Origin: Acidobacteriota bacterium
Lineage (GTDB): Bacteria; Acidobacteriota; Blastocatellia; Chloracidobacteriales; JADJPF01
Assembly: GCA_017303955.1 (NCBI GenBank)
Contig: JAFLBC010000021.1
Coordinates: forward strand, 79,810 to 104,445
Length of the DNA stretch: 24,636 nucleotides
Direction: 5' to 3'
The notes beneath the pieces were generated by a model. It had not been told where the DNA came from, searched no databases, and saw nothing but the letters and a program-made list of their open reading frames with translations. The translations under genes and the position numbers were made by a program. This document shows, one piece after another, positions 275 through 21,668 of this stretch (the first letter of the stretch is position 1; every line of letters starts with the position of its first letter).

Positions 275-289
275 TTAATAGGGATTATT

Positions 290-793: not shown

Positions 794-807
794 GGAGAGA
801 TATTTTT

Positions 808-1110
808 ATGGTACCGCTTTCCTGGTATTTAGCTTTAAGTGCAGTGCTTTTTACTATTGGTGCTGTAGGAGTTTTTGTTAAACGAAATGTTATTTCTATC
901 TTTATGTGTATTGAGTTAATGCTTAATGCAGTAAATTTAACCTTAATTGCTTTTTCTTCTTATTATAGAGAAATTTCAGGTCAACTATTTGTCTTTATTG
1001 TAATGACTGTTGCTGCTGCTGAAGCTGGTGTAGGATTGGCTCTAGTCATTGCTGTCTTTCGTAATCGTCAATCTTTGGATGCAGACGACGCAAATTTATT
1101 AAAGCTTTAG
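808..1110 (+). CDS. nuoK: NADH-quinone oxidoreductase subunit K
   Basis: 100-aa three-TM protein with the NuoK/ND4L pattern ([13 protein letters not shown]...[10 protein letters not shown]...[10 protein letters not shown]). A strong SD (aaggagag) lies 7 nt upstream. Confidence 0.9.
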
Positions 1111-1144
1111 AAATTTTGCCAAAAAAAGTATAGAGGCATTATAA

Positions 1145-3226: not shown

Positions 3227-3251
3227 TTAATAATTTATTGCGGAAAAAATT

Positions 3252-4802: not shown

Positions 4803-4823
4803 AATTATAGAGAGAAGATTGCT

Positions 4824-6341: not shown

Positions 6342-6367
6342 GGGGCAAGCAATGCCCCTATCTTTTC
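6341..6367. terminator. Bidirectional rho-independent terminator between nuoN (+) and the convergent small ORF (-)
   Basis: Perfect 7-bp stem AGGGGCA/TGCCCCT (6341-6347 and 6353-6359) with a 5-nt loop. It is followed by a T-rich tract (atcttttcc) on the + strand and an A/T-rich tract in the other direction. Confidence 0.7.
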
Positions 6368-6601
6368 CTACTTTGATTTTGATTTGGGCTTTTTTTCACG
6401 TCTCCAAGTGTGAAATATACCAATCACTATATGCAGTAAAATAATAAAAAATCCCCAAAGTACATCAGGAGAAAGAAAATTACTAGCCATAATCGTTAGT
6501 GAAACAGCCTCGTTTAATGATGGACAAGCTAAAGTAGAATTACTAATAAATAACATTATAGTTAATGTTAGGAAGAAGCTAAACAAATCATTTAATTTCA
6601 T
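6368..6601 (-). CDS. Hypothetical small membrane protein (77 aa) with a basic C-terminal tail
   Basis: ORF with two predicted hydrophobic helices (FFLTLTIMLFISNSTLA; LWGFFIILLHIVIGIF) and a C-terminal RREKKPKSKSK. It is 32 nt downstream of the TPR-like gene on the same strand. I recognise no family. Confidence 0.45.
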   Translation of the reverse strand: MKLNDLFSFFLTLTIMLFISNSTLACPSLNEAVSLTIMASNFLSPDVLWGFFIILLHIVIGIFHTWRREKKPKSKSK

Positions 6602-6633
6602 AATTTTACCTCAAAAGTATCAATTTATTTTTA

Positions 6634-7314
6634 TTATAAATTCTTAAGCATATCTTTAGCCACTTGTTTATCACGAGTGTCTTCTTTTTCATGGTTAGGT
6701 GAAAGAGGTGCTTTAATTACCCATTCTAAATGCTCACGAGCTTTATCTTTATTTTTTGTTGCCGCATAAACATCAGCTATATAAATATGATTTAAGTAGA
6801 ATTTGGGGCCGTGTTTTAGAGCTTTAAGCATAAAATCAAGAGCTTTTTTATTATCACCTCGTGAAAGCGGCCAAGAAGGTAACTGATTGTAAAGACGACC
6901 TAAAACCCTTAAAGGTGCGCCATAAAAGTATTTTTCATCTATTTCTAGAGCTTTACGAGTATGTTTTTCTATTGGATCTATTAGTCGTACAGCTTCTAAC
7001 ATCCCTTTTTCGCGCCCATAAAGCCCATAATTCACAGCCAACCAAAAATTAGACTCTAAAGAATCTTCATCAACTTCAACACCTTGTTTTCCGTATTCAA
7101 CACCTTGTTGATAAATTTCTAAACGATCTTCTGCTTCAGCAACTTCACCTCGCCAATAGTAAATTTGTGCTAGTAGCCCATATGCCCAATCCGTGTCAGG
7201 CTCTTTTTTTATTAACTTAACTAGCAAAGTTTCAGAATCTTTAAGATTAGTTTTTTTCTGTTCTCTAAGTTTAATTAAATTAAGTGCTTCATCATAAATT
7301 TTTTGATTTTTCAT
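6634..7314 (-). CDS. TPR-like helical-repeat protein (226 aa)
   Basis: Repeated W/Y-A-x-G-x-h-Y..G...A helix-pair patterns typical of TPR repeats (WAYGLLAQIYYWRGEVAEAE; FWLAVNYGLYG; RVLGRLYNQL; HIYIADVYAATKNKDKAREHLEW). It starts 4 nt after the upstream zinc-ribbon gene stops. Confidence 0.55.
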   Translation of the reverse strand: MKNQKIYDEALNLIKLREQKKTNLKDSETLLVKLIKKEPDTDWAYGLLAQIYYWRGEVAEAEDRLEIYQQGVEYGKQGVEVDEDSLESNFWLAVNYGLYGREKGMLEAVRLIDPIEKHTRKALEIDEKYFYGAPLRVLGRLYNQLPSWPLSRGDNKKALDFMLKALKHGPKFYLNHIYIADVYAATKNKDKAREHLEWVIKAPLSPNHEKEDTRDKQVAKDMLKNL

Positions 7315-7318
7315 AGGT

Positions 7319-7690
7319 TTATCCCAAAAATGCTTTAATCCATTTTATTACTGGTGGTGAAAGCTGTATTGCTCCTATTATAGAAATAAGTAATAAAAAT
7401 AAGTGAAAAAATATACTACTCAAAGATTTTAATTCTAAAATAGACATTCCTAAAATAGAGCTAGAAAAAATAAGTCCGATAATAAAAAATGTAACTGTAA
7501 AAAATACTGTTATAGATATTTTTATTCCTAACTCTAGCTTTTCAAGCTCTGGAGCTATAACAATTTCTGCTGGTTTTCCAATAGGGTTGCCATCCATATC
7601 TATTAAATTAGAGCTACAATGATGACAATGATGAGCAGAGACTTGTAATAATTTTGAGCAAAAAGGACATTTCTTCATTAGTTTTGTCAA
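7319..7690 (-). CDS. Zinc-ribbon (CxxC...CxxC) membrane protein (123 aa)
   Basis: N-terminal CPFCSKLL...HHCHHCSS is a four-Cys zinc-ribbon-like motif. Two hydrophobic TM helices follow (ISITVFFTVTFFIIGLIF; FFHLFLLLISIIGAI). It is the first gene of a three-gene minus-strand cluster. Confidence 0.5.
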   Translation of the reverse strand: MTKLMKKCPFCSKLLQVSAHHCHHCSSNLIDMDGNPIGKPAEIVIAPELEKLELGIKISITVFFTVTFFIIGLIFSSSILGMSILELKSLSSIFFHLFLLLISIIGAIQLSPPVIKWIKAFLG

Positions 7691-7879
7691 AAACCTTAAT
7701 TTTTAAGATGGATACTAAAACTTGTAAGATTAATTTTAAGGCTAAGTTTTAGCTGGATTATTTTAAACGATAGGCTATTAAACAGCTAGTATTAATATTG
7801 TCCCAAATAGAAGAAAAACACAAAATTAATATTTTTTAGAAACCATTTACTTTTATTTATTTAATAATTCTTATCCTAG

Positions 7880-7955
7880 ACAAGCGGATAATTCTTTATG
7901 CTTGATCTATAATCACCCAAACTAACTATAAATAATTATAACTAGGGAAAATTAT
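7880..7955 (+). promoter_or_regulatory. Putative promoter region for the large repeat-protein gene
   Basis: AT-rich 265-nt divergent intergenic region. TATAAT hexamer at 7908..7913, 43 nt upstream of the ATG, and an SD-like tagggaaaa before the start. The -35 is poor, so the call is tentative. Confidence 0.25.
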
Positions 7956-10868
7956 ATGAGACTAACGCTGGCTATATTAACTAAGATATATAAGCTAATG
8001 TTTATTACAATATTTATTGGATTATGTTCAACTTTAACATTAGCTCAAGCAACTAAAGGCGATTTTAACCTTGAAATTAATCCAAAATCTGCAACTATTC
8101 CCGTAGGCAATGCAACCAGCTTTAGTATTTCTTTAACACCTGTAAATGGATTTAATGAAGCAATAAAACTAACAGCTAGTTCTTCTGTAAAAATAGATAT
8201 AGATTTCTCTACTAATTCAGTTAGACCGCCAGCTACAGTGACTATGAGAGTTAGCGTCCCTGATACTATACAACCAGGTAGCTATACAATAGGTGTTACA
8301 GCAAGTTCTGGATCAATTACAAAATCACAAAATATAACTATTAATGTCCCTTCGCCAACTTTTAGCTTAAGTGTTAGCCCTACGTCTGTACAAACTACAC
8401 CAAACAGTAGCTTGGATTTTACTGTCTCAGTTGGTGGAGGAAGTGACTTAAAACGAGATGTTTCATTGAATGCTCAAAGCAAAGACGGCTTACCTGTGAG
8501 GTTGTCTAGTGATTTTGTTAGGCCTCCTGGCAGTGTTCGTATGACAGTTACTATTCCTACTGGAACGGAGATAAGAAATTATCAGGTAGTAGTTACTGGT
8601 AGTTTACCAGGCAGTACTACTTCACAAACTGCTACAGTTAACATTGATGTCAGACCTTTACCAGATTATAGGCTTAGCTTTAATCCTACTTCCATTTCTT
8701 TGGCTGCTGGTGAGTCAGGAGATGTTTTTGTCAACATAGCTAGTCTTAACGGGTTTGATCAAAATGTAGACTTAAAAATAGACACTGAACTTAAAGCTTC
8801 CCTTTCTTCCACTGTCATTAATGGAGCAGGTACAACTCGTTTATCTATTAATACAGATCGGAATACGGCTGTTAAAGATTATTTAATTACAGTCAATTCC
8901 TCTAGTAACACTAAAGGAGGAGTAATTACAAAACGCGATACTCTAACAGTTACAGTTACTGCACCGCCTGATTTTACATTAGTTGCTTTACCAAATACTT
9001 TAGATATAGATCCAGGTAAAAGTGCTAATGTTAATGTTTCTATTACTCCTACTAATAGGTTTACTGGAATAGTGAATTTAACAACAAATCCATCTAACCC
9101 TAATATTACAACTAGTTTAACTAGTAATAATATTGGCCCAAACTCAAGTGCAAGTTTAGCAATAAACGTTGGTGCTAATGTTGCACCAGGTACTTATGAT
9201 ATAAGCGTTTTTGGTTCATCTAGCGGAATACCGCAGAAAACAACAATAGTTAGAGTAAATGTTAAATCTGTAGGGGATTTTGACTTGTCACTTAACTCTA
9301 ATAAACAAGAAATTATGGCAGGCGAATCTGCTAATTTTGTTGTTAACACACTCGGACAAATGGGTTTTGCAGAAAGAATTACACTTTCTGCCAGTGTTGA
9401 TGGGCTTCAAACTAGCTTTTCTCCTACTACAATAGATGCAACTGCTATGTCAACTTTGATTGTTAATACTACACAAGAAACAGAGGCTAAAGATTATTTA
9501 GTTACTATTACTGCTAGAGGTGGAGGAATCACTAAGACCACAACAGCTACATTAACAGTAAAACCTCGCTTAATTGGTGATTTTACTTTGATAACTACAC
9601 CAGACTTGCAAACGCTTTCTGCTGGTAAATCAACATCTTTTAGTTTAGCAATAAATCCTGAAAATGGTTTTAATGAGCCAGTTAATTTAACTGCCGAAGT
9701 GTCAGAAAGCTCTATACAAGTAGTCTTTTCTAATAAAACTGCAAGACCTGGTGATAATATTTCTGCTACTATTATTACAACTGGAACTACACCTCCTCAA
9801 AATTACTCTATTAGAATTATAGGTGCTTCAGGTTCCTTAGTTAAAACTGCATTATTTGGCCTAAATGTTACTCCTCAAGTGCAGGAAGCTTTCTCCTTAG
9901 CATTAGCACCTAATCTACAAAGTATTGCTAATGGTGAATCTACAATGTTTACCGTTGGGGTAGTTGGTCGTAATGGCTTTAATCAAGCTGTTAGCTTAAG
10001 TGCTAGTACAACCGATCCAAGCATTCAACTTAATTTTGATAGTTCAAGTGTTAATGCTGGAGGCAATACTTTTATTACTGTAACTACTAGTTCTAATACT
10101 CAACCAGGCACTTACACTATTTCAATTACAGGTAGGGCAGGAAGTTTAACAGTTTCTCAGCCAGTAATTTTAGCTGTTCGTCAAGCTGTTCTAAAAGTAG
10201 ACATTAGCTTTGACCCTCCTCAAGTAGGGCAAATGGGGCCTCCACAAAATGTTAAAGTTGTAGCAACAGAATTAAAACCAGGACAAACTCAATCAATTAG
10301 AACAAGTGCCAATAAACTAGAACCTTTAGCAGATAGTGATTTAGCAGGCTTTAAGATTTATAGGCTTCCAACACCAGCAGAGGGACAACCAGCTTTAACC
10401 GCAGAAGACTTGGTAAAAGATGAAAACTTAATAGCTACAATTCCTAATGATACAACAACTTTTACTGATAATGTTCCAGTAGGGGCAAGCTCAACAGGTA
10501 ATTTCACTTATTCAGTAACAAGCTTTTTTGGAAATGGGCAAAATAGCAATGGTTCTAATCCTATGGGAACGGAACTACCTGTAATTAGAAATCCAAAGTT
10601 TATCAAAGGAACAATTTTCTTAGATTCAGCAAGTTCTTTTATCAACGCAACAGGCGCAACAATAATAATTAATGGTATAGATGAGTATCCATTAATTTTT
10701 AATTCTGAAGCTACTCAATTTACAGTTAATAAGAAAATTACCAGCTTACCAAGTAGCATAACTTTGAAAAAATTAATTAAAAAAGGTCAAACTGTAGAAT
10801 TAGTAGTTAGAAATAAGGATGGTAAACTGTCTGTAGCTAAAAGTCTTACTCGTCCTAAGAAAAAATAA
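7956..10868 (+). CDS. Large secreted/cell-surface protein (970 aa): N-terminal signal-like hydrophobic segment, seven tandem ~100-aa Ig-like (CARDB/NEW3-like) beta-sandwich repeats, and an FN3-like C-terminal region
   Basis: The N-terminus KLMFITIFIGLCSTLTLAQA is signal-peptide-like. Seven repeats share the pattern F-x-L-x-x-x-P....G.S..F.V.h...NGF...V.L.A....(Y.I.V.G.SG). The protein is Ser/Thr/Asn-rich. The C-terminal ~225 aa has FN3-like strands (NVKVVATELKPGQTQSI...FKIYRL...YSVTS). Confidence 0.7.
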   Translation: MRLTLAILTKIYKLMFITIFIGLCSTLTLAQATKGDFNLEINPKSATIPVGNATSFSISLTPVNGFNEAIKLTASSSVKIDIDFSTNSVRPPATVTMRVSVPDTIQPGSYTIGVTASSGSITKSQNITINVPSPTFSLSVSPTSVQTTPNSSLDFTVSVGGGSDLKRDVSLNAQSKDGLPVRLSSDFVRPPGSVRMTVTIPTGTEIRNYQVVVTGSLPGSTTSQTATVNIDVRPLPDYRLSFNPTSISLAAGESGDVFVNIASLNGFDQNVDLKIDTELKASLSSTVINGAGTTRLSINTDRNTAVKDYLITVNSSSNTKGGVITKRDTLTVTVTAPPDFTLVALPNTLDIDPGKSANVNVSITPTNRFTGIVNLTTNPSNPNITTSLTSNNIGPNSSASLAINVGANVAPGTYDISVFGSSSGIPQKTTIVRVNVKSVGDFDLSLNSNKQEIMAGESANFVVNTLGQMGFAERITLSASVDGLQTSFSPTTIDATAMSTLIVNTTQETEAKDYLVTITARGGGITKTTTATLTVKPRLIGDFTLITTPDLQTLSAGKSTSFSLAINPENGFNEPVNLTAEVSESSIQVVFSNKTARPGDNISATIITTGTTPPQNYSIRIIGASGSLVKTALFGLNVTPQVQEAFSLALAPNLQSIANGESTMFTVGVVGRNGFNQAVSLSASTTDPSIQLNFDSSSVNAGGNTFITVTTSSNTQPGTYTISITGRAGSLTVSQPVILAVRQAVLKVDISFDPPQVGQMGPPQNVKVVATELKPGQTQSIRTSANKLEPLADSDLAGFKIYRLPTPAEGQPALTAEDLVKDENLIATIPNDTTTFTDNVPVGASSTGNFTYSVTSFFGNGQNSNGSNPMGTELPVIRNPKFIKGTIFLDSASSFINATGATIIINGIDEYPLIFNSEATQFTVNKKITSLPSSITLKKLIKKGQTVELVVRNKDGKLSVAKSLTRPKKK
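8064..10187 (+). repeat. Seven tandem, diverged ~300-nt coding repeats (protein domain repeats) inside the 970-aa gene
   Basis: Repeat units start at about nt 8064, 8361, 8667, 8973, 9279, 9582 and 9891. Each encodes 99-103 aa beginning F/Y-x-L-x and containing a conserved N-G-F. They are diverged at DNA level (domain duplication, not a recent repeat). Confidence 0.7.
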
Positions 10869-10897
10869 ATTTTAACCATCAATTTGTAAATAAAAAT

Positions 10898-10924
10898 AGC
10901 CCAAGATAACACTTATCTTGGGCT
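10898..10924. terminator. Bidirectional rho-independent terminator between the convergent repeat-protein gene (+) and the ABC-2 permease gene (-)
   Basis: 12-bp perfect stem AGCCCAAGATAA/TTATCTTGGGCT with a 3-nt loop (cac). It is followed by attttatt on the + strand and preceded by aaaaat, giving a U-tract on the minus-strand transcript. Confidence 0.8.
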
Positions 10925-10930
10925 ATTTTA

Positions 10931-12049
10931 TTAAACATTACTTTGACGAAATCTTAGTGATGCTAACAGTAACATTACTAGTCCCATAACTAACATTACT
11001 GCTCCATTTACCCATAAATGATTAAAACCTGCTCCACGTAAAATAATGCCTCGCAAAGTATCAATATAGTAAGTTGTAGGAATAAAACGGCTTATCAACC
11101 AAAATATTTTTGGCATATTATCTAATGAAAAAATATAGCCTGACAAAAATATTGCTGGTAGCAATGTACTCATCGCCATTTGCATTGCTTCGCTTTGAGT
11201 ACGCGCTTTTGTAGAAATAATTAACCCCATCCCTAAAATAGTTAAAATAAAAGGAATAGAGAAAATTAATAGTAAAATTACACTTCCATGAATTGGTACA
11301 TCAAAAGCATAACGCATCACCAGTAAAATCCAGCAAAGCTCAAAAAATCCTAATATCCCATAAGGCAACATCTTTCCTACCATTAACCCTAATGGGCTAA
11401 TAGGTGCTAGGTAAAGATTTTCTAATGTTCCTCGTTCCCGTTCTTTTACTAAAGAAAATGAAATTAAAGCAATTAACATCATTTGTAAGACTACAGCGAC
11501 TAACCCAGGAATAAAAAAGTTAGCTGAACGAGTGCTGGGATTAAAAAGAACTTTATGCCGTGATTCAACTACACCAGGTGATTTTGCTACAATTCGTTTT
11601 AATGATTCTTGTAAAGTAATAGCACTAGATACATTTACTGCCTCACTTGTAACATTTGATTCCGAACCATCAACTAGCAGTAAGACACTAGTGTTTATAC
11701 CTTTTTGCAGAGCGCGTGAGTAATCTTCAGGAATTTTAATTCCAACTTTTGCTTCTCCTGCAACAATTTTATCATAAAGTTCCTTATCAGAATTTACTCT
11801 AGCAACTACATTAAAGTCATCACTATTAATATAACGTTCAATTAAAAGATGACTTTCCTGAGTTTTTGCCAGGTCATAAACTACTGTTTTTATTTGACGT
11901 ACATTAGTATCTACAGCAACGCCTAGTAAAACCATTTCAAAAATAGGTATAAAAAGAGCAAAAAATAATGTTGTTGGGTCGCGTAGTATCTGAAGTATTT
12001 CTTTCTTAAAAACAGGAATTAAGCCTGAAAAAAGATAATTTTCACTCAT
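10931..12049 (-). CDS. ABC-2 type transporter permease (YhhJ/YbhS-like), 372 aa
   Basis: N-terminal TM helix, then a large extracytoplasmic loop, then five C-terminal TM helices ([16 protein letters not shown]..., [22 protein letters not shown]..., [22 protein letters not shown]...). Its start codon overlaps the upstream ATPase stop by 4 nt (ATGA). Confidence 0.8.
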
Positions 12050-13026
12050 AACTTTGTACCTCCTAACAGCGATATGTTGTTAGTAATATTATTAGTTAGA
12101 GTGACAAAAATATCTTCTAAGGAAGGTCTGATAGGGTTTATTACTAGATTTGTAAAACCTGCTGTTTCTAGGTCTTCTTTCAATTTGGAACTACTTTGAG
12201 TTTTTTCACAAAGCACATGAATTGATTGACCAAAAATTGTTGATTCCCAAACATAGGGAAGATCTTTAATAAAACTTAATGCTTCAGATGGAGAGCTAGA
12301 AAGAATTTCTAAGCGTGTTGAACCAACAGGAGAAACTTCTGGCAACGTTCTTAGTTCGTCAACAGTTCCAACAGCAATTAAGTTTGATAAATAGATATAA
12401 CCAACACGGCGGCATCTTTCGGCCTCATCCATATAATGTGTTGTAACAAAAATAGTTATCCCATTAGCAGAAAGCTTAAAAAGCAGATCCCATAAAGCCC
12501 GACGTGCTACAGGGTCAATTCCCGCAGTAGGTTCATCTAGGAATAATACTTCAGGTTCATGAATAATTGCACATCCTAAAGCTAAACGTTGTTTCCAACC
12601 ACCAGATAAAGCACCTGCACGACGTTCTAAATAAGGGGTTAAGCCTGTTAGCTCTAAAACTTCAGGTTTACGTAACTTTATTTGATCTTTTTTCATATGG
12701 TATATGCCAGCATAAAAATCTAAATTCTCATTTACTGTTAGCTCTTCATAAAGACTAAATTTTTGAGACATATAACCAATGCGTTTTTTAATTTTAAAAG
12801 AATCTTTATGAATATCTAAACCAAGAATTTTACCTTCACCAGTTGCATGAGTAATTAGCCCACATAAAGCTTTAATAATCGTAGTTTTACCAGAGCCATT
12901 TGGCCCAAGTAAGCCAAAGATTTCACCTGTTTTTACTTGAAAAGAAACTTTGTTAACAGCAGTAAATTTTCCAAATTTGATGGTTAAATTTTTTGTTGAA
13001 ATTACTGGATCTATTGTATTTATCAT
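12046..13026 (-). CDS. ABC transporter ATP-binding protein, 326 aa
   Basis: Walker [13 protein letters not shown] signature [12 protein letters not shown], Walker [13 protein letters not shown]-loop TTHYMDE. A ~90-aa C-terminal extension follows. It lies 3 nt after the HlyD gene. Confidence 0.9.
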
Positions 13027-13029
13027 AGC

Positions 13030-14172
13030 TTACTCCATTGGCTTTAATTTAACATCAGCCGCCATGCCAGCCTTAAGTAAGCCTTCTTTGTTATCAATAT
13101 GAATTTTAATTGCAAAAACTTGATGAGAACGTTCATCACGATTTTGAACATTTCGGGGTGTAAATTCAGCTTTAGCTGAAATTTGTTCTACTTTTCCAAG
13201 AAAAGCTTTGTTAGGAAAAGAATCAACAAAAACTTCTACTTCCTGTCCAACTTGGACAAAACCCAGATCAGGTTCTGGCACATAGACACGTACACGAATT
13301 TGATCACTTTCCAAAAGTCTTGCAATAGGGCTAGTTGCTTGAACTAGATCGCCTACTCGAACACTAAGCAAATCTATTTGACTATCAACAGGAGCAATTA
13401 CTTCTGCTTCATTTAGTTGGGTGTTAAGTTTTTCAAGCGTCGCATTAGCTTCGGCTAGTCGTGCTTTAGCTTCCAAAATATCTTCGCTTCTTGCACCAGA
13501 TTTAAGTAATTTTAGGTTAGCAATAGCTTGTTGGTAACGTTCTTGACCTACACGAATATCTTCGCTTCTTGTTCCTGCTTCTAAAAGAGCAAGTTTTTGC
13601 TGTAAGGATTGATAACGAGAATCACTTAAAGCTACTTTAGCAGCCATATCATCACAGCTTTGTTTAGAAACATAGCCTTCCTTAAAAAGCTGTTCTAATC
13701 TAGCTAAGGAGGTTTTATAGTGATTTAGTTCAGCTTTTACACCAATAATTTCTTCTTTTAGTTGGGAAATTTCTTGGGGACGTGGGCCATTTTTTAAGGC
13801 TTCTAATTGGGCTAGTTCACGATTAACCGTTGCTTGGGCTTGTGCAATTTCTTCTGTCCGATAACCATTTTCTAGCTTTTTTAGATAAGCCTCAGCTTGG
13901 TCAATTTTTGCTTGGAGTTGTTTTTTTTCTGCTAGCAGGGTGTCATTATCAAATCGTACTAGAGGAGTCCCTTTTTTTACTATTTGCCCTTCTTGTGCTA
14001 AAACTTCTATGACACGACCACCAATTTTAGAACCAATTTGTACTTCTTGAGCTTCGATTGTTCCAAAAAGCAAAAGTTCTACTTTTGTGCTTTCGCTTTT
14101 TGTATACATTCCTGTTACTACAATACCAAATGAGATTAATAAAATAATGATAACAACAAGTTTTTTATACAT
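13030..14172 (-). CDS. HlyD-family membrane fusion (periplasmic adaptor) protein, 380 aa
   Basis: N-terminal TM anchor (LVVIIILLISFGIVVTGMY) and a long central coiled coil (repeated LxxAxxxL/E-Q heptads). The C-terminal beta-domain motifs (VRVRVYVPE, AADVKLK) are typical of HlyD/EmrA adaptors. Confidence 0.85.
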   Translation of the reverse strand: MYKKLVVIIILLISFGIVVTGMYTKSESTKVELLLFGTIEAQEVQIGSKIGGRVIEVLAQEGQIVKKGTPLVRFDNDTLLAEKKQLQAKIDQAEAYLKKLENGYRTEEIAQAQATVNRELAQLEALKNGPRPQEISQLKEEIIGVKAELNHYKTSLARLEQLFKEGYVSKQSCDDMAAKVALSDSRYQSLQQKLALLEAGTRSEDIRVGQERYQQAIANLKLLKSGARSEDILEAKARLAEANATLEKLNTQLNEAEVIAPVDSQIDLLSVRVGDLVQATSPIARLLESDQIRVRVYVPEPDLGFVQVGQEVEVFVDSFPNKAFLGKVEQISAKAEFTPRNVQNRDERSHQVFAIKIHIDNKEGLLKAGMAADVKLKPME

Positions 14173-14213
14173 TTGTCACCTCGTTATAAAAAAATGAAGA
14201 GAACAAAATAAAC

Positions 14214-16874
14214 TTAGTCTTTGATCATTATTTGGCCTTTATCACCGTCAACAGTTATATGTTGACCATTTTTAATTATAGTAAGCAGATTAGGAATATT
14301 TACTACTGCCGGTAGTCCATATTCACGCGCAACAATCGCGCCATGAGATAAAAATCCTCCTACTTGCATAACTATTGCTGAAGCACGTAAAAAAAGAGGT
14401 GTCCAACCTGGGTCAGTTGTAGGGGCTATAAGTATTTCTCCTGGAGCTAACAGATTGCCTTCTGATGGGTGCATAATAATTCTTGCAATACCTGAATATT
14501 TCCCGCTAGATACTGCTAAACCTTTTAATATTGTGCCATTTGAAGTTTTTTCTATTATTGCTGGTTTATTGACTGCGCTAGTATTTGTTGTAGGGTTGCC
14601 AAAATGATCAAAAATATAAAAATCTTTAATAGTTGTTTCTTTTAACCAAATTTCTCTTTGGTTTCTATTGTCTGTTGCTATTTCTCTTGCTCCTTGTCCG
14701 TTCCATTGGCCTGTTAAATAAGCTTCCATATCAAAACCGCTTAAATGAAAAATATCTGTTGGATCATCTAAGAAACCACTGTTAACAAGGCGTTTACCAA
14801 CTTCTAAGCAAATTTTTCTAATAGGCTCTATGGTTGCAACTAACGTAGATTTGCTAAGTTCGCGTAGTGCTGCACCTTGGCGAGCTTTTTTAGTAAACCA
14901 ATTGATTAAAGGACGATAAGGAAAAGAAAGCTGTGAAATTTCTTTTTCTGCTGCTTGACGAACTGCTATAGCAGTGTTTTTTGGGGAAGTGATGTTTTCT
15001 GAGCTTAAAATTAATTGTATTTGTTCAAATAAATAGCTAGGGTCTTCATTCCATCGTGGGTTGGCTGTTTCAGCTTCATAAACTGCCCGATGTCCAAATT
15101 CAGCTAAAAACTTTTCAAACTCTTGACGAAAACTAGATGTTTTAGGAAGCTTTTGCCAGTCTTTAGCAATAATTGGTGTTTGTTTTAGATAAGTAAGTGC
15201 GTCTGTGTCTTGTTGTGCTACTTTGGCTAAATGGTAAAGTTGATAACCATGCTCTGCTGTAGTAACTTGTCCGCTACCAGCTAAAACCGCTGTAGTTAAA
15301 GCCTCGGCCCTCTCAGGTTTAATTTTTGTTAGCGTTTCTTTAATTGGTGTCACCCACGCACCAGCATTAGCATTAGCCAACTGAAACTTTTTAGCAAATT
15401 CATATTGAAAAACTAAAATTTCCCTAACTAAATCTGCTAATTCTTGATTAGATTTACTTGCTACATCTGTGTTTTTCCAACCCTTTATGCGTGTTTGTAA
15501 AGTGACAATATCTTTTGGCATTTGTCGGGAAATCTTAAGCAATACTCTAAGAAATTTTATTTGTCTTAGTTTACGTGTTAATCCTACTTTACCTTTTAGG
15601 GGATCGCCTGAAGGCACAGGAATTAAAGGATGATGACCGCCTAGTCCCCGTGAAGTGTCTTCGGGAGACATTCCAACAGCATCATAAAAAGCCCATTGCA
15701 TAGTTGTTACTTCAAAATAACCACGTCCGTTAAAACGCTTAAGCATTGGTGAACCATCTTTTCTGGGATAATCCATTGCATCTAAGATTTCATATAAAAT
15801 TTCAGAAACAAAGTCATGCACCATATGCCAGGTTAAAGTAGTCGGTACACCTGCAACAGCGTCTTGAATATTTCCTGTTGACCAAATTATTGGTAAATGC
15901 TCAATATTTGGGAAAGTATAATGAGGTAAACGGGTTACAGGTCTAGCTTGAAGCAGCCAAAACTTTTCTCCATCAAATGCCCATTCTATGTCCTGTGGGT
16001 TATCACCTTTTCCTATTGCCCAATGAATACGCCAAACCAGTTGAGTTAATTTTATTGTTTGTTCTGGAGTTAAAACTTGTTGCTCAGGGCTTTTTCTTGA
16101 TATTTCAGTTAGATTACCTTCTTTAGATAAAACTGTAATTTCTTCAGGATTAACTTGACCACTAACCAGGGCCTCAGCTAAACCATTGACAGCATTAATT
16201 GTTACAACATTAAGTTGACCTGTTCGCGGGTCGCAAGAAAATGCTACACCGGCTGATTTAGCCTTGACCATCTCACAAATTACTACAGCACAAGCCACTT
16301 GGTCATCTTTCAAATTCATTTTACGACGATAAGCAATTGCTTGTGGTGTCCAAAGTGAGCCATAACAACCTTTAATTGCATCAATTATTTCTCTTAGCCC
16401 TTGAACATTTAGAAAACTGCGATGAATACCAGCAAATGAAGCCGTTTCGCTATCTTCTGCCGTCGCGCTAGAACGAACGGCAACAGATGTATTTAATAAG
16501 TTATTTTGTTTAAGAAAATTTTCTAGCTCTAATGTAAATTCTTTTGAAAAATTAATGTTGGCTAAAATCTCTTGGATTTTATTAAGTTTTTCTATTGTTT
16601 GAGCTTCTGAGACGGATAAAGGGGATATATTTTCTAATTCTAATTGTAGGCTTTTTAACTCTGGGCTAAGCATTATTTCTTGATAAAGGTTGGCTGTAAC
16701 TACACCGCCTACAGGAACTTGAAAGCCATAGCGGTAAAGCTGGCCTAATTTCCAGCCTTTTCCACCACAAAGCGCGGCTCCAGCTAATGCTGCTGTTGTC
16801 CAATCTAAGATTTTGCTACTTGTAATTTCTTCATCATTTATAAAATTAATTGCTACTTGACTTGCATTGCTCAT
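14214..16874 (-). CDS. PEP-utilising phosphotransferase of the PEP synthase/PPDK family with rifampin-phosphotransferase-like architecture: N-terminal ATP-grasp, ~450-aa middle domain, C-terminal His swivel domain; 886 aa
   Basis: N-terminal PPDK_N-type motifs (GGKGWKLGQL, VAVRSSATAEDSETASFAGIHRSF, QDIEWAF). The extreme C-terminus is the PEP-utilisers mobile domain with the catalytic His (APTTDPGWTPLF...GGFLSHGAIVAREYGLPAVVN). There is no C-terminal TIM-barrel PEP/pyruvate domain, so this is not a canonical PpsA or PPDK. Confidence 0.8.
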   Translation of the reverse strand: MSNASQVAINFINDEEITSSKILDWTTAALAGAALCGGKGWKLGQLYRYGFQVPVGGVVTANLYQEIMLSPELKSLQLELENISPLSVSEAQTIEKLNKIQEILANINFSKEFTLELENFLKQNNLLNTSVAVRSSATAEDSETASFAGIHRSFLNVQGLREIIDAIKGCYGSLWTPQAIAYRRKMNLKDDQVACAVVICEMVKAKSAGVAFSCDPRTGQLNVVTINAVNGLAEALVSGQVNPEEITVLSKEGNLTEISRKSPEQQVLTPEQTIKLTQLVWRIHWAIGKGDNPQDIEWAFDGEKFWLLQARPVTRLPHYTFPNIEHLPIIWSTGNIQDAVAGVPTTLTWHMVHDFVSEILYEILDAMDYPRKDGSPMLKRFNGRGYFEVTTMQWAFYDAVGMSPEDTSRGLGGHHPLIPVPSGDPLKGKVGLTRKLRQIKFLRVLLKISRQMPKDIVTLQTRIKGWKNTDVASKSNQELADLVREILVFQYEFAKKFQLANANAGAWVTPIKETLTKIKPERAEALTTAVLAGSGQVTTAEHGYQLYHLAKVAQQDTDALTYLKQTPIIAKDWQKLPKTSSFRQEFEKFLAEFGHRAVYEAETANPRWNEDPSYLFEQIQLILSSENITSPKNTAIAVRQAAEKEISQLSFPYRPLINWFTKKARQGAALRELSKSTLVATIEPIRKICLEVGKRLVNSGFLDDPTDIFHLSGFDMEAYLTGQWNGQGAREIATDNRNQREIWLKETTIKDFYIFDHFGNPTTNTSAVNKPAIIEKTSNGTILKGLAVSSGKYSGIARIIMHPSEGNLLAPGEILIAPTTDPGWTPLFLRASAIVMQVGGFLSHGAIVAREYGLPAVVNIPNLLTIIKNGQHITVDGDKGQIMIKD

Positions 16875-17505
16875 AAGGTGGAACTCCTTTAGCTAAAGAG
16901 AAATCCAGACTTGGTTTAGCACCTTCTAAAAACAAAGAAAGACAAAAATTAAGTTTTTCTTTTAATGAAATATTTTCACTAGATTCTAGCCAATATCTTA
17001 CTGAATGGATGAAAACAAGCCCAAAGATTTGTGAAAGCTCATAGGAAGAAATATCATTTCTAAGCTCGCCTTTTTCTTGTGCTGTGGCTAAAAACTTATG
17101 GACAACCTGCCTAAATGAAGGATGATCATGGCGTTCATGATGCTTTTTCATATGCTGATAATTACTAATGCTATAGTGGAAAAAAATATTAGCTAGCTTA
17201 CGGTTTTCTGTTAGCCATCTTGCGGCTTCTGCTAGAAAATCCTGAAGTGCAATAAGAGGTGATTGACCTGTTTCTATAGCTATTTGTGTACGCAAAGCGT
17301 TTTCTAACATAGCCGTTTCACCAAGTGCTAAAACTAGTTCCTCTTTACATTCAAAATGATAATAAAATGTTCCCTTAGCTACTTTGGCAGCTTTAGTAAT
17401 ATCGTCTATAGTGGTTGTTTCATAACCTTGTTTGGTAAATAGTGAAATTGCTGTAGAAATGATTTGCTCACGGGTGGCAGTTCGTTTTTCTTCTCTTAAT
17501 CCCAT
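16846..17505 (-). CDS. TetR/AcrR-family transcriptional regulator, 219 aa
   Basis: N-terminal HTH TREQIISTAISLFTKQGYETTTIDDITKAAKVAKGTFYYHFECKEELV is a canonical TetR_N. It is the first gene of the operon. Its 3' end overlaps the phosphotransferase start by 29 nt. Confidence 0.85.
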   Translation of the reverse strand: MGLREEKRTATREQIISTAISLFTKQGYETTTIDDITKAAKVAKGTFYYHFECKEELVLALGETAMLENALRTQIAIETGQSPLIALQDFLAEAARWLTENRKLANIFFHYSISNYQHMKKHHERHDHPSFRQVVHKFLATAQEKGELRNDISSYELSQIFGLVFIHSVRYWLESSENISLKEKLNFCLSLFLEGAKPSLDFSLAKGVPPYEQCKSSSN

Positions 17506-17525: not shown

Positions 17526-17654
17526 CTGACTAAAGTTTATTTTTAGACTACGGTCAGTTTTCTAAAAAAGTTTCTCTACTCTAGCAAAATAAAGCTTTGG
17601 AAGCATCAATAAAAACTATGCTAAACTCAACAAAAACAGCAAAGTAGGTAGGCT

Positions 17655-18032
17655 ATGACAAATAAAGAAATTCAAAAATTAATAGAATTTATTATCACTC
17701 AACAAGCAGAAATGTCTGTAAAACATGCACAGATACTTGATATTCAATTTGAAACTGCAAAAAGACAAGGTGAATATGAAAAACGCCAAGCTGAATTTGA
17801 AATCAAATTTAACAATAAATTAGATGCTTTATTAGATTGGCAAGCAAAATTTAGTATTGATTTAGAAGATTTAAGAAAAGAGACTAAGGAATTTAGAGAC
17901 GACCTTAAAAAAACTAAAGATACCCTTAAAGAAACTAATGATATCCTTAAACAAGTTTCTCATTTGGCTGTTGAAACTTCTGAAAGAGTTGATAAGCTTG
18001 AAGATAAGCTTGAAGATAACGAAAAAGAATAA
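17655..18032 (+). CDS. Small highly charged coiled-coil protein (125 aa), hypothetical
   Basis: Lys/Glu/Asp-rich ORF with heptad-like periodicity (LKETNDILKQV..., VDKLEDKLEDNEKE) and no TM segment. It is divergent from the TetR operon and convergent with the 502-aa ORF. Confidence 0.5.
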   Translation: MTNKEIQKLIEFIITQQAEMSVKHAQILDIQFETAKRQGEYEKRQAEFEIKFNNKLDALLDWQAKFSIDLEDLRKETKEFRDDLKKTKDTLKETNDILKQVSHLAVETSERVDKLEDKLEDNEKE

Positions 18033-18059: not shown

Positions 18060-19568
18060 CTACGTTATTTTATCTAGTAACCAGGTAGGCCATTCAGATT
18101 CTTTATTCCAAAGTAAATATTCCTTTACATAATCTTGCAACATCACTCTAAAAAAAATAGGCAGTTGAAATTGCCCATTTCCTTTCCAGTAATTTTCCCA
18201 ATAAATCGGAAGAGAAAAATTAAATATTTTGTTAGCTTCCTGGATAATTCGTTGAAATTGATTGGTTTGTATTTGAAGGCTATCCAGGAAATCTTGTTGT
18301 AAAAATTTAATGCCTGATATGTCTGGCTGCCAACAATCAATCTTTTGCTCTCGCTCAATTTTTTGCTCTAAAACCTTCCATTTGTTATTAGCAGTTTTTC
18401 TTAAGACTCCAGCCTTAAAAAGCATTGGCAGCAATTCAATTACTACTTTTTTATTAAAAATAGCTAGCTGAGAGCTTTTTGCTGATAAATAAACCTCAAT
18501 TTCTTGGGCAGTAGCGGATAAATCTGTAATATCAATATTAGTAAAATCACATAATGCGTTAGCTAGGCGTTTAAGATAGATTTTTAAGCTAGTTGAAGGC
18601 TTTACAGATGGACAAGCATTGTCCAAGTCCCAAGAATAATTAAGTTCTGTGCGCCAAATTTCTGGTCTTTGTTGCCACCAGTTTAAGAGTAAAATTAGCA
18701 ATACTACTAGACGTTCTAAAGGTTTTGTTTCTGGAATAATTACTGTAAGTCGTGAACCTTCATTAATTTGCTCTGCATATTCTAGGCATTCTTTTAATAG
18801 CGTAGGCAAATAATTAATTTTTTGAAGAAACTCTGTTGCCAAAGAAACAAAGTTTGATAAATCACATTCAGCAAATAAAGAGCATAAATTTAATTTTCGT
18901 TTTACTCCAAAACAAGTAACAAACTCTAAACTTAATTTATTTTTTAAGTTGGGTAGTTCAGCAATATTAGTAATTTGCTTTAAGTTTGTTGCTACTTGCC
19001 AATAAGATTTTGGTGTAACGGTTAGTCGTTTTTCAAGGTCGTCTTGGCACCAAATAATGATTTTTTCCCGCAGTTTTATTATTGCTATTTTGCAAGCATG
19101 ATGAGGATCTGAGCCTAAATTAAAGTTGTCAAACCAGTCATCAATTGACACTTTTGACCAAAGTTTATTTGGACGATTAACGGCCATATCCAACAGAGCA
19201 GCAGCAGTTCTAGTTGCTGGATCATCTCTAAATAAACTTGGGTCAGCACTATAAATGCTTCCAATCCGAGGCATTCCGCTACGATAAAGCAGACCGGAAA
19301 AGGCTAGCCCAATAAATAAACCTGTAGGCTTTTTGTCTCCATAATCTACTTCACTGTCCTTCCACCTTGGCGCACTTTGGTCAGCTTGAAAATTAATGTC
19401 AATTAAGATTATGTCAGGGTCAATTAATTCTGTTTGAGTGTTAAGCAAATGTTGGGCAGTTGTCCAAGTGTCAATATGCAGTAAATCTAGATCATCTGCT
19501 CTTAAAACAGGATAAGAAATATAGTCATTTACATCATCGATTAATAGAATTTGTAGCTTATCACTCAT
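18060..19568 (-). CDS. Hypothetical 502-aa protein with an N-terminal receiver (REC)-like region; no recognised family
   Basis: The N-terminus LQILLIDDVND ... DIILIDINF ... GLFIGLAFSG resembles receiver-domain beta1 (acidic pair), beta3 (phospho-acceptor Asp position) and beta4. The remaining ~380 aa has no motif I recognise. It starts 6 nt after the 697-aa ORF stops, consistent with co-transcription. Confidence 0.55.
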   Translation of the reverse strand: MSDKLQILLIDDVNDYISYPVLRADDLDLLHIDTWTTAQHLLNTQTELIDPDIILIDINFQADQSAPRWKDSEVDYGDKKPTGLFIGLAFSGLLYRSGMPRIGSIYSADPSLFRDDPATRTAAALLDMAVNRPNKLWSKVSIDDWFDNFNLGSDPHHACKIAIIKLREKIIIWCQDDLEKRLTVTPKSYWQVATNLKQITNIAELPNLKNKLSLEFVTCFGVKRKLNLCSLFAECDLSNFVSLATEFLQKINYLPTLLKECLEYAEQINEGSRLTVIIPETKPLERLVVLLILLLNWWQQRPEIWRTELNYSWDLDNACPSVKPSTSLKIYLKRLANALCDFTNIDITDLSATAQEIEVYLSAKSSQLAIFNKKVVIELLPMLFKAGVLRKTANNKWKVLEQKIEREQKIDCWQPDISGIKFLQQDFLDSLQIQTNQFQRIIQEANKIFNFSLPIYWENYWKGNGQFQLPIFFRVMLQDYVKEYLLWNKESEWPTWLLDKIT

Positions 19569-19574
19569 AAATTT

Positions 19575-21668
19575 TTATTTTTGGAAAACAAGCTGAGGAC
19601 GAAATCTTATAGCAATAGAATGGTAATTTGATGGTGATTTATCTACAAGCAAAAATTCAACTAACTTTTTTTCTTCTCCTTTATCATTGCGAAATACAAA
19701 ACAGGAAAGCAAGTTTTGAGTTCTTTTTAGCCCATCGGAAAGTTCTGTTGGCTTTTCGTCCCCTGCTACAGGGTTAGAAATCAGTAATTCATAAAATTCA
19801 TCCTCTTCTAAAATTAAAGAAAACTTTATATCAATAATGTAATTGATTAAATCTTTTGACTTTAAGAAAAATTTCTTGTTTTGTTCTAGTTGTTTAACTA
19901 AATATTGGATTGCATTACCTAAAATCTCATGTATTCCTACTAGAAATAATGAGGTTGCCTCTATGCTAAATGGTGGAAATACAGGTATTTCTGCTAAATT
20001 GCTATTTTGTTCTAGTTTTGGACATAAACAATCATTTGATTTGCTACACTCAGCTTTATGAAAAATAATAGCAATACTACTAGAGTTAATTAGAGAGAAT
20101 AATAAATGCTGAATAATTTCTTGAATGGTTTTGCGCCAAAGGTCAGCAAACTCTTGTAAGTTAAAAGCATTAGTGTTATTAATAAGTTTTAATAAGTAAG
20201 TTTTAGGATTATCAAATTTTGTTACAGTTCTAATTGCATCTGTAAGATGATAAAGCTCTTGTAGGACGGCGCAAGTATAAAGCACTTCAGCCTTTTCTAT
20301 CGGCTCATTATTTAGGCTTTTAGCATAAAGAACGCGGTAACGACTCCGCCGGCTTAAGGTGTTCATAATTTCATGAGTTAAGCCTTGAGTAAGAAAATAT
20401 TGTTCTTTAATAATAATTGCTGCTGTTCGGGAAAGTTTTTCTCTAAATTGTGCTTCCCAATATTCTTCTTGACCAGGTAGATTTAACTTTACACCTGGAC
20501 AATTTCTGTAAATTACTAAATCAAAACCAAAGGCTTTTTTAAGTAAATAAGCATCTTTATGTCTGTTTAGATTAAAAATTATTGTTGCTGTAGAGTTGCT
20601 ATCTTCTTCAATTATCAGGAGTTTTGATTTTTCTGTACTAGATTCTGATATTGGTAAGGACGCTAAATTGTTTTCTTTTTTTTCTACTGAAAAATGAAGA
20701 GCTAAAGAGTTTTCTCTAAAAAATAAAATTTCTTCTGCAATCCATAAATGAGAAAAAACATTTGCAACGTTTTTCATTCTTTCCAAAGCATCTGTGTGTT
20801 TAGAAATAGCGTCTTCAAGTAGAAAAATAAAAACATCTATTAAATTAATAGAGTAAATTTCCTCAATTGCTAAAATTAATGATTCAGGAGGCGACTTTCT
20901 AACTAATCTAAGATGCTCTTTTAACTGCTTATTTTTAGGACAGATCCAGCCAGCCATAGCTCGCCATTGTGCTAAACCTCTTAGCGGTAACAAAATAGGA
21001 ATAAATGCGCTAGGCAGAATTTTGGAAAATGAAGATAGTCGTGCATAAAGATATTCTGCTAGGTAAATATGCAAATTTTCTGCTGTTATAAGATTGTTTT
21101 GAACTGTGTAATTTAATAATGCAATTAAATTAGAATACTTAATTTGTTTATATTGGTTAGGATTGTTATTTTTATTTAAGTTTGCTATATCCAATAGAGC
21201 TTGAAAACTAAAAGGAGTTTTACGATGACTACTACTAATTAAAAGAGCTTCAGCAGAAATAATATATCCAACCGCGCCGCCTATAAGTTCTAAGTGAAAT
21301 CCTAAATTTTCTTCACTTCCAACACCATCACCAATTTCAAGCAATTTACATAAGTCACTGGTTGGATCCAATATTTTGCTAGCAAGCTCAATTAAAGCTT
21401 GATGATTATTATCTACATTTTTGTAATTTTCTTGCCAATAAAGATAGATATTTTTTTTGATTTTTTCAGCACATTCTTTGGTGTTAGAGTTAGTTTGATA
21501 GCCTGTATCCCAGAACTGAATTTTGTCAGATAGAGGATTAAAACTTCTTTGTTGGGTAAGAAAAAAATGTTGTAGCTTAGGGGTAAAATGTTGCAATGTC
21601 CAAACTAGTAAATCAAAGCAGCGTTTTTGAATCGCTTCTGCATTTAATTTTGCTTCTAAACTTAGCAT
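19575..21668 (-). CDS. Hypothetical 697-aa protein; no recognised family
   Basis: Long uninterrupted ORF, Asn/Lys/Ile/Leu-rich. It has one short motif, HEILGNAIQY, reminiscent of a GHKL/histidine-kinase N-box, but no G1/G2 boxes are evident. It is the upstream partner of the 502-aa ORF. Confidence 0.55.
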   Translation of the reverse strand: MLSLEAKLNAEAIQKRCFDLLVWTLQHFTPKLQHFFLTQQRSFNPLSDKIQFWDTGYQTNSNTKECAEKIKKNIYLYWQENYKNVDNNHQALIELASKILDPTSDLCKLLEIGDGVGSEENLGFHLELIGGAVGYIISAEALLISSSHRKTPFSFQALLDIANLNKNNNPNQYKQIKYSNLIALLNYTVQNNLITAENLHIYLAEYLYARLSSFSKILPSAFIPILLPLRGLAQWRAMAGWICPKNKQLKEHLRLVRKSPPESLILAIEEIYSINLIDVFIFLLEDAISKHTDALERMKNVANVFSHLWIAEEILFFRENSLALHFSVEKKENNLASLPISESSTEKSKLLIIEEDSNSTATIIFNLNRHKDAYLLKKAFGFDLVIYRNCPGVKLNLPGQEEYWEAQFREKLSRTAAIIIKEQYFLTQGLTHEIMNTLSRRSRYRVLYAKSLNNEPIEKAEVLYTCAVLQELYHLTDAIRTVTKFDNPKTYLLKLINNTNAFNLQEFADLWRKTIQEIIQHLLFSLINSSSIAIIFHKAECSKSNDCLCPKLEQNSNLAEIPVFPPFSIEATSLFLVGIHEILGNAIQYLVKQLEQNKKFFLKSKDLINYIIDIKFSLILEEDEFYELLISNPVAGDEKPTELSDGLKRTQNLLSCFVFRNDKGEEKKLVEFLLVDKSPSNYHSIAIRFRPQLVFQK

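Follow-up and report, generated by a model that had tools for sequence, protein, structure and literature searches.

What might a bacterium do with an enzyme of the rifampin phosphotransferase (RPH) type that is encoded between a ligand-sensing regulator and an efflux pump? The question is raised by a stretch of 24,636 nucleotides from an Acidobacteriota bacterium (GenBank assembly GCA_017303955.1, contig JAFLBC010000021.1, positions 79,810 to 104,445 of the forward strand), hereafter the window, which carries five packed minus-strand genes for a TetR-family regulator, a dikinase and the adaptor, ATPase and permease of an ABC-type pump. The original prediction, made from the sequence of the window, saw there an RPH-like enzyme coupled to an exporter and proposed a cassette that inactivates and exports a xenobiotic. 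We found that the operon is a chimera, in which a widespread TetR-dikinase module is joined to an adaptor/ABC/ABC-2 pump, a modest variation on known parts. The dikinase belongs to the superfamily of RPH but falls into a separate clade outside RPH itself. With moderate confidence, we favor ligand-induced phosphorylation and export of a small molecule by this one TetR-controlled operon. The five genes are as follows, in the order of the operon.

16846-17505, minus strand: TetR-family regulator, 219 amino acids (Pfam TetR_N, 59 bits, and TetR_C_44/43)
14214-16874, minus strand: ATP-dependent small-molecule dikinase, 886 amino acids (Pfam, NCBIfam, PDB sequence matches, AlphaFold2 and Foldseek)
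13030-14172, minus strand: YbhG/EmrA-type membrane-fusion (periplasmic adaptor) protein, 380 amino acids (Pfam HlyD_D23 and HlyD_3)
12046-13026, minus strand: ABC ATPase with a single nucleotide-binding domain, DrrA/RbbA-like, 326 amino acids (Pfam ABC_tran, 109 bits)
10931-12049, minus strand: ABC-2 type permease, 372 amino acids (Pfam ABC2_membrane_3, 170 bits)

The coordinates of the open reading frames (ORFs) and the Pfam matches agree with the original prediction on the strand, the order and the tight packing of these genes. Counted from TetR, the first two genes overlap by 29 nt and the last two by 4 nt, the two junctions in between being gaps of 41 and 3 nt, and the ATG of the dikinase at 16874 is preceded by AAAGGAG with an 8-nt spacer. 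This spacing suggests that all five genes are co-transcribed, and the TetR gene and the YbhG-type adaptor/ABC/ABC-2 exporter lie, as had been claimed, in one predicted transcription unit. The arrangement is not due to chance, because the same five genes (four in L084) recur in the loci L002, L082, L083 and L084, at 62-93% identity of the enzyme.

The dikinase consists of an ATP-grasp domain (residues ~22-317), a middle substrate-binding domain (~318-770) and a C-terminal phospho-His swivel domain (~771-886), the last with the motif FLSHGAIVAREYGLPAVV that the original prediction had pointed out at its end. Pfam matched PPDK_N at residues 35-317 and PEP-utilizers, the mobile His domain, at 810-880; no Pfam match was found in the dikinase to PEP-utilizers_C, the phosphoenolpyruvate (PEP)/pyruvate TIM barrel. 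An AlphaFold2 model, built on an alignment of 26 sequences (A1), reached pLDDT 88.9 and pTM 0.88. When compared with the PDB by Foldseek, six entries of the Listeria monocytogenes RPH (RPH-Lm) ranked first (E 2e-43 to 3e-27, ~890-930 aligned columns), while PEP synthase and PPDK matched the ATP-grasp domain only or with poor TM-scores. This full-length match to RPH-Lm bears out the three-part RPH layout, as opposed to the PpsA/PPDK one. The structures of RPH-Lm are also the best solved relatives by sequence (E 4e-67), with only residues 32-323 and 536-886 aligned. The A1 profile lifted this match to E 4e-114 and placed positions 453-874 on RPH-Lm 448-865, leaving unaligned the RPH-Lm residues 317-447, where most of the rifampin contacts lie. 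In addition, a precomputed Pfam match to Rph_4th is recorded for the dikinase, and the middle-domain motifs GRxYF/GGRLF and WSxxN/ISVAH align between it and RPH-Lm in a MAFFT alignment of 108 sequences (62 members of its clade, 45 others and RPH-Lm). The profile, the Rph_4th match and the structural comparison agree that the middle domain is homologous to the substrate-binding domain of RPH, a kinship without which the original prediction could not stand.

The sequence of RPH-Lm was rebuilt from the full-length PDB alignment because none of 80 genome loci reached the RPH cut-off, and all 21 residues named by Stogios et al. (2016) agree with it. In the 108-sequence alignment, RPH-Lm K22, R117, T136, E297 and T523 correspond to K39, R134, S153, E297 and T539 of the dikinase, and R666, E667, K670 and H825 to R671, E672, K675 and H844; this whole set is kept across the clade. 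Mutagenesis of RPH-Lm found these counterparts to be needed for activity, and R666A and E667A each abolish rifampin modification (PMC4844700). The domain order and the catalytic residues both place the dikinase within the RPH-type small-molecule dikinase superfamily. Three sites in the gene are listed here.

14343-14345, minus strand: codon of His844, the predicted phosphocarrier (RPH-Lm His825); His in 108/108 aligned sequences, translation-checked
14850-14864, minus strand: codons of R671-E672-x-x-K675, the second-step phosphotransfer motif (RPH-Lm R666/E667/K670)
15861-15863, minus strand: codon of Asp338, the clade-defining swap for RPH Gln337; Asp or Glu in 62/62 clade members

In the phosphotransfer motif, the Arg and the Glu are present in 62/62 clade members, and the Lys in 53/62 with Arg in the others. 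The enzyme had been called PEP-dependent. We regard it as ATP-dependent instead, because the ATP-grasp domain at the N-terminus is intact in its ATP-contact residues and the PEP/pyruvate TIM barrel is absent. RPH converts ATP and substrate into AMP, inorganic phosphate and the phosphorylated substrate (PMC4844700), and by analogy the dikinase would be expected to yield AMP, inorganic phosphate and a phospho-substrate.

Is it then a true rifamycin phosphotransferase, so that the operon would inactivate and export rifamycins? It shares the three-domain architecture of RPH, no solved structure matches it better than RPH-Lm in sequence or in fold, its catalytic His, Arg-Glu and Lys are retained, and some database sources label homologues as 'rifampicin phosphotransferase'. 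On the other hand, every NCBIfam model scored the dikinase under its curated cut-off, with RIF_Ptrans_rph (NF041857) at 334 bits against 999 and RPH (NF000283) at 235 against 1700. The dikinase is 26% identical to RPH-Lm and forms its own branch in the neighbor-joining tree, whereas members of the validated RPH clade A share >42% identity with RPH-Lm (PMC4844700). The comparison of rifampin contacts with L. monocytogenes RPH, which the original prediction had proposed, came out negative: of the 11 contacts (Q336, Y351, T354, P356, A357, M359, V368, L387, L478, F479 and M673), 10 differ, although the alignment of contact residues is less certain across RPH-Lm 317-447, the segment that holds most of them and that the profile could not align. 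The sole matched contact, Q336 (Q337 of the dikinase), stands in a column where most clade members have Lys or Arg. Gln337, which binds the product phosphate in RPH, is replaced by Asp338; this column is Gln in 41 of 45 RPH-side relatives. Moreover, a Clostridium difficile protein in the locus L077 scored 752 bits on the RPH model and is thus far nearer to RPH than the dikinase with its 334 bits. It is presumably the clade-N homologue of the Stogios paper or a close relative, and even that homologue conferred no rifampin resistance (PMC4844700). On the scores, the identity, the changed contacts and the replacement of Gln337, we rejected the assignment to true RPH, and a rifamycin resistance cassette appears very improbable to us. 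The original prediction had named placement in a non-RPH clade as an outcome that would speak against its narrow RPH reading, and this is the placement that was found; its caution that the substrate of an RPH-like enzyme may be no antibiotic was right.

The clade has a signature of its own, W331, D/E338, W394, D398, G412, A540, S676 and R695. Apart from D/E338 these residues, together with P404 and G728, are invariant and clade-specific in the middle domain. In two Syntrophomonadaceae loci, L014 and L019, a clade member adjoins paralogues whose identity to RPH-Lm is 55-57%; this speaks for distinct functions of the two types. The dikinase-superfamily copies lie at 811-3585, 5451-8162 and 8322-10961 in L014, and at 3407-6118 and 7965-10604 in L019. 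A Halorubrum locus (L063) carries three RPH-side copies in tandem. The sequence search with the dikinase recovered >4,500 relatives. Full-length relatives at 43-50% identity come from Symbiobacteriaceae, Ktedonobacteraceae, Planctomycetota, Gemmataceae, Chloroflexota and Methylomirabilis, and at 30-40% identity the clade extends to Firmicutes, Betaproteobacteria, Gammaproteobacteria, Chitinophagales and Candidatus Methanoperedens. The clade is large, present in many bacterial phyla and at least one archaeon, and not rifamycin-specific. PEP synthase (pyruvate, water dikinase) was also rejected as an identity of the enzyme: the dikinase scored 280 bits on PEP_synth (TIGR01418; cut-off 739.75), 294 on PRK06464 (598) and 379.5 on PRK06241.1-3 (945), the best-scoring 'PEP synthase' subfamily, only its ATP-grasp and His domains match, and its His domain is not central. 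MarK was considered as a relative and dropped, as it has an unrelated fold (UPF0261).

To see what accompanies the clade in genomes, ORFs were called in 46 clade loci and all of them within 6 kb were clustered after removal of antisense shadow ORFs. TetR was the only recurrent neighbor, with 26 of the 46 loci having one; nearly all of these TetR genes are upstream of the dikinase on its own strand, most of them directly adjacent, and one further TetR, in L086, is divergent. In RPH-side loci, a TetR gene occupies that position in only a few. The TetR of the window matches the dikinase-linked TetRs of other phyla at 28-32% identity over residues ~3-197, the ligand-binding domain included. Its match to the TetRs of the pump operons in L093-L095 is confined to the N-terminal DNA-binding part, the first 60-100 residues. 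Judged by these alignments, the TetR of the window is of the type that accompanies the dikinase clade. Its best solved relative is 3ang, annotated as 'Transcriptional repressor, TetR family' (full length, E 6e-14), and this match is too weak, at 55 bits, for inference of a ligand. The literature search found no characterized TetR-linked RPH homologue, within incomplete coverage. In L086, from a Clostridiales bin, the genes that come after a TetR-dikinase pair on its strand encode a flavoprotein with amine-oxidase/NAD_binding_8 domains (10646-12127) and, at a greater distance, an MFS transporter (14672-15844). This may be an alternative enzyme-transporter pairing, of which it is the one case.

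The same survey bears on two non-antibiotic roles. The dikinase may be biosynthetic or secretory, activating a substrate for condensation like PigC or HapC or making a phosphorylated signal, with the pump as exporter of the product. PigC, RedH and HapC share its architecture, the dikinase scored on PigC and RedH (322 and 305 bits) close to its score on the RPH model, and the strong conservation of the substrate domain across phyla suggests one common substrate. The RPH superfamily is known to contain such ligases (PMC13534948). These scores are nevertheless far under the cut-offs of PigC and RedH (1300 and 1350 bits), no biosynthetic genes recur in the 46 loci, and the flanks vary among the five-gene loci. 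A ligand-sensing TetR directly upstream is, moreover, more typical of inducible detoxification, efflux or catabolism. A prodigiosin ligase of the PigC/RedH kind was thus rejected, on the cut-offs and the lack of biosynthetic neighbors at the locus, and the biosynthetic or secretory role as a whole is unlikely in our estimate.

The second role is catabolic or scavenging: the enzyme would be a kinase of phenolic or aromatic compounds, like HpeHI, CreHI and PpsAB, and the pump a passenger or an exporter of excess substrate. Clade hosts include Syntrophomonadaceae, Pelotomaculum, Desulfosporosinus and Dechloromonas, lineages known for anaerobic degradation of aromatic compounds. HpeI is among the Foldseek matches (9goj), and characterized non-antibiotic members of the superfamily phosphorylate phenolics (PMC12167813). 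These catabolic kinases are, however, two-component enzymes (PMC12167813), whereas the dikinase of the window is a single chain. In the 46 loci, no catabolic gene recurs next to the dikinase, be it for a carboxylase, for ring cleavage or for another step. Kinases of the HpeHI/CreHI/PpsAB type are, as far as is known, encoded inside catabolic clusters. A downstream exporter would also work against uptake for catabolism, and we consider this role quite unlikely.

The remaining three genes encode the pump. The N-terminus of the adaptor, MYKKLVVIIILLISFGIVVTG, is a hydrophobic membrane anchor. This protein scored 131 bits on TIGR01730 (above the cut-off of 94.9) and 212 bits on PRK03598 (YbhG; below the cut-off of 393), with a precomputed match to HH_YBHG and EmrA (4tko) as the best solved relative. 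The ATPase scored 244 bits on TIGR01188 (drrA), below its cut-off of 312, and retains an intact Walker A (GPNGSGKT), signature (LSGGWKQR), Walker B (LFLDEP) and H-loop. The gene set is that of a TetR-regulated adaptor/ABC/ABC-2 exporter, and efflux itself is predicted.

How firmly is this pump linked to the dikinase? A dikinase followed by adaptor, ABC and ABC-2 genes occurs only in four low-GC loci (34-36% GC): L002, where the enzyme is 93% identical to that of the window, and L082, L083 and L084, where it is 62-64% identical. L002 comes from a near-identical relative of the organism of the window; the flanks of L082, L083 and L084 were compared with the window, and their genes differ from one another and from those of the window. 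Between the window and these three pump-bearing loci, the protein identities are as follows.

TetR-family regulator: 61-71%
Dikinase: 62-64%
Adaptor: 70-76%
ABC ATPase: 82-83%
ABC-2 permease: 86-87%

The five proteins have thus diverged roughly in parallel (61-87% identity). In L084/L085, a 233-nt gap (7768-8001) lies upstream of the dikinase, after a divergent gene for a VWA-domain protein; regulation must differ there, because no TetR gene is upstream. The nearest permease relatives outside the group are 57-69% identical and come from Acidobacteriota wherever the source is labeled. Among them, L093, L094, and L095 from Terriglobus albidus, carry a TetR-adaptor-ABC-ABC-2 operon without a dikinase (permease 57-68% identical). 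Since the TetR of the window is of the dikinase type and not of the pump type, the TetR-dikinase module has displaced the own regulator of the pump. The simplest history that these comparisons suggest is that a TetR-dikinase pair was inserted before a resident pump operon and replaced the pump repressor. Hence, of the enzyme-exporter pairing that the original prediction stressed, what stands is its conservation in four loci of one lineage; it is no general property of the enzyme family. Most clade dikinases have no neighboring transporter, and export is therefore not required for the function of the dikinase. A metagenome scan with the permease recovered only three loci, of which the first was an identical contig, the second was known already and the third was a short fragment. 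The source labels of this lineage conflict (L002 versus P0001, P0004 and P0122-P0209): the bin of L002 is labeled 'uncultured Clostridia bacterium', whereas the same protein cluster is labeled 'Blastocatellia'. A GC content of 34-36% is unusually low for Acidobacteriota.

Such a history raises the possibility of co-location without a shared substrate, in which a rearrangement put TetR-dikinase before the pump and the two act on separate molecules from a shared promoter. Each module also occurs without the other, the TetR-dikinase pair in most of the clade and the TetR-pump operon in L093-L095, and their fusion is limited to one lineage. Against this, the tight junctions are kept down to 62% identity of the enzyme and through changes of the flanks, the pump has lost its own regulator and now relies on the dikinase-type TetR or on read-through, and L084 retains enzyme and pump together despite the loss of TetR. 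Mere co-location is doubtful in our view, and we return to phosphorylation and export of one molecule under TetR control.

A shared control would need an operator before the TetR gene and an end of transcription after the permease gene, and a candidate for each was found.

17526-17557, minus strand: candidate TetR operator, an imperfect palindrome CTGACCGTAGT-N10-ACTTTAGTCAG, recognized by conservation across loci
10888-10924, minus strand: intrinsic terminator, whose core stem AGCCCAAGATA/TATCTTGGGCT of 11 bp contains G+C and precedes a T tract

The candidate operator precedes the TetR start codon by 21-52 nt. This palindrome block is the one part that can be aligned between the upstream regions of the window, L002, L082 and L083, and its arms agree with each other at 8 of 11 positions in the window, against 10 of 11 in L083. 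Of 89 loci, just three showed the operator pattern (L001, L002 and L083), and each of these has the five-gene cluster. L082 has an extra spacer and right arm at ~7290-7381 (AAAAATGAACTTTAGTAT then AAAAATAAACTTTGGTCAG), which suggests a duplicated or degenerating half-site. Conservation and position make this block likely to be the TetR operator. The upstream palindrome of the original prediction is accordingly retained as a block conserved across loci, though only as an imperfect 11-N10-11 repeat: no inverted repeat was found upstream of TetR with a seed of 6 and a minimum length of 10, and folding of the operator region gave z = -0.28, so that the palindrome is insignificant within the window alone. 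A gathering search of the whole window against Rfam gave no match, and therefore no riboswitch or leader. The terminator lies seven bases past the stop codon of the permease gene. Its RNA folds at -22.1 kcal/mol (z = -7.4; 0 of 200 shuffles fold as well), with the stem extended into the flanking A/T by ViennaRNA. The hairpin lies between two convergent genes with T/A tracts on both sides, and it is probably bidirectional, also serving the convergent gene for a 970-aa protein. A consensus terminator scan missed this hairpin; the same scan found no convincing minus-strand terminator inside the five-gene cluster.

On this basis, the following mechanism may be proposed. In the absence of ligand, TetR would sit on the palindrome upstream of its own gene and repress all five genes. 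A small, probably hydrophobic, hydroxyl-bearing compound would release it. The dikinase would then use ATP to pyrophosphorylate His844 on the swivel domain, with loss of the gamma-phosphate to water. The beta-phosphate would travel on the swivel domain to the middle domain, be positioned there by R671, E672 and K675 and pass to the bound substrate to give phospho-substrate, AMP and inorganic phosphate. Either the compound or its phospho-product, or both, would leave the cytoplasm or inner membrane through the pump. From the evidence above we infer the repression of the genes and their induction, the reaction with the actual substrate, and that enzyme and pump share one molecule. To our knowledge, there is no characterized example of coupling in which a compound is phosphorylated and then pumped. 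A more specific proposal would make the TetR-dikinase pair a widespread ligand-inducible inactivating kinase for a non-rifamycin class, and so a new family of resistance or detoxification enzymes, and the exporter a pump specifically for the phospho-product; it is tentative, and we lean against it.

Several facts weigh against ligand-induced phosphorylation and export by one operon. The middle domain is very conserved across phyla, which fits a common metabolite as well as a xenobiotic. About 40% of the clade loci have no TetR, including examples from Planctomycetota and Ktedonobacteraceae, most of the clade has no adjoining transporter, and L084 keeps dikinase and pump without TetR. The co-transcription of the five genes is deduced from gene spacing alone, the operator palindrome is imperfect in the window, and a promoter scan gave 23 sites against 22.9 expected, that is, no enrichment. 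By the annotation of the window, no gene for an outer-membrane channel or factor is in or beside the operon. Finally, the literature search returned no characterization or substrate for any clade member. It also returned no paper on the clade, its pairing with TetR or its fusion to a pump; its coverage was incomplete, and this is no proof of novelty.

Comparison with known systems shows which parts are familiar. The dikinase resembles RPH-Lm (5FBS/5FBT/5FBU/5HV1; NF041857) in the order of its three domains and in the ATP-contact and His/Arg-Glu/Lys residues, and differs in that the rifampin pocket is not kept, Gln337 is Asp/Glu and the identity is 26%. Its genomic partner is TetR, whereas a rifamycin-associated element controls the rph genes of actinomycetes. 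In Stogios et al. (2016), distant RPH clades (e.g. N and Q) keep the Arg-Glu/Lys block and have lost the rifampin-specific blocks. The dikinase of the window has exactly this pattern of retention and loss, but neither the TetR pairing nor the pump fusion is reported in the sections of that paper that were consulted. The match of our clade to theirs is one of pattern. PigC/RedH/HapC and HpeHI/CreHI/PpsAB are members of this superfamily too and share its His-swivel mechanism, and they show that the fold serves non-antibiotic substrates; PigC and RedH are separated from the dikinase by their model scores (322 and 305 against 1300 and 1350 bits), and the phenolic kinases by being split into two subunits.

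With regard to the pump, E. coli cecR-ybhGFSR is an adaptor/ABC/ABC-2 efflux system under TetR control (PMC12998191, PMC7190983). The operon of the window has likewise a TetR regulator, a YbhG-type adaptor, ABC and ABC-2 genes and no outer-membrane factor gene, but the dikinase gene stands between its regulator and its adaptor. The TetR scored 19 bits on CecR (PRK11552) against a cut-off of 365, and the adaptor 212 on YbhG against 393; being below both cut-offs, the pump is similar in kind and not an orthologue. E. coli YbhF has two nucleotide-binding domains and ybhGFSR has two permease genes, whereas the ATPase of the window has a single nucleotide-binding domain and its operon a single permease gene. 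The logic is that of mphR(A)-mphA-mrx, in which a TetR-family drug sensor controls an antibiotic-inactivating kinase and a membrane protein. The combination of sensor, kinase and membrane protein is alike, but the components are not related: MphA, a kinase of the APH type, consumes GTP or ATP and leaves a nucleoside diphosphate, and Mrx is not an ABC pump, whereas the window has a His-swivel dikinase and an ABC pump.

The operon is surrounded by genes of other kinds. The tail of a complex I operon occupies 17-6341 on the plus strand, with the 3' end of nuoH followed by nuoJ, nuoK, nuoL, nuoM and nuoN (Pfam Oxidored_q3, Oxidored_q2 and three Proton_antipo_M proteins). The 970-aa protein convergent with the operon is encoded at 7956-10868 on the plus strand. 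Its sole above-threshold match is NCBIfam 'lipo-invert' (44 bits against 37) at residues 702-741, in mid-protein, although lipo-invert is a C-terminal anchoring domain; weak Ig-like and alpha-2-macroglobulin-like matches suggest a large surface protein. Upstream of the operon, a divergent 125-aa ORF (17655-18032, plus strand) is followed by tandem minus-strand ORFs of 502 aa (18060-19568) and 697 aa (19575-21668). None of the three has a Pfam match at the thresholds, and the 502-aa and 125-aa ORFs have no NCBIfam match; the 697-aa ORF was scanned against Pfam. The 125-aa ORF does not belong to the conserved module, its place being taken by other genes in L082 and L083. An M28 peptidase (21730-23349) and an alpha/beta hydrolase (23400-24287) follow.

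Finally, the substrates of the RPH superfamily are so far few, namely rifamycins, prodiginine precursors and some phenolics, and here a clade is defined by its own active-site signature and a dedicated TetR sensor. This sensor offers a practical route to the substrate of the dikinase, and the exporter fusion suggests that the phosphorylated compound or its precursor must leave the cell. The operon also provides a clean example of the capture of a resident pump by a regulator-enzyme pair that replaces its repressor. If the substrate is an antibiotic, the clade would be an unrecognized environmental resistance determinant that is annotated today as 'PEP synthase'.

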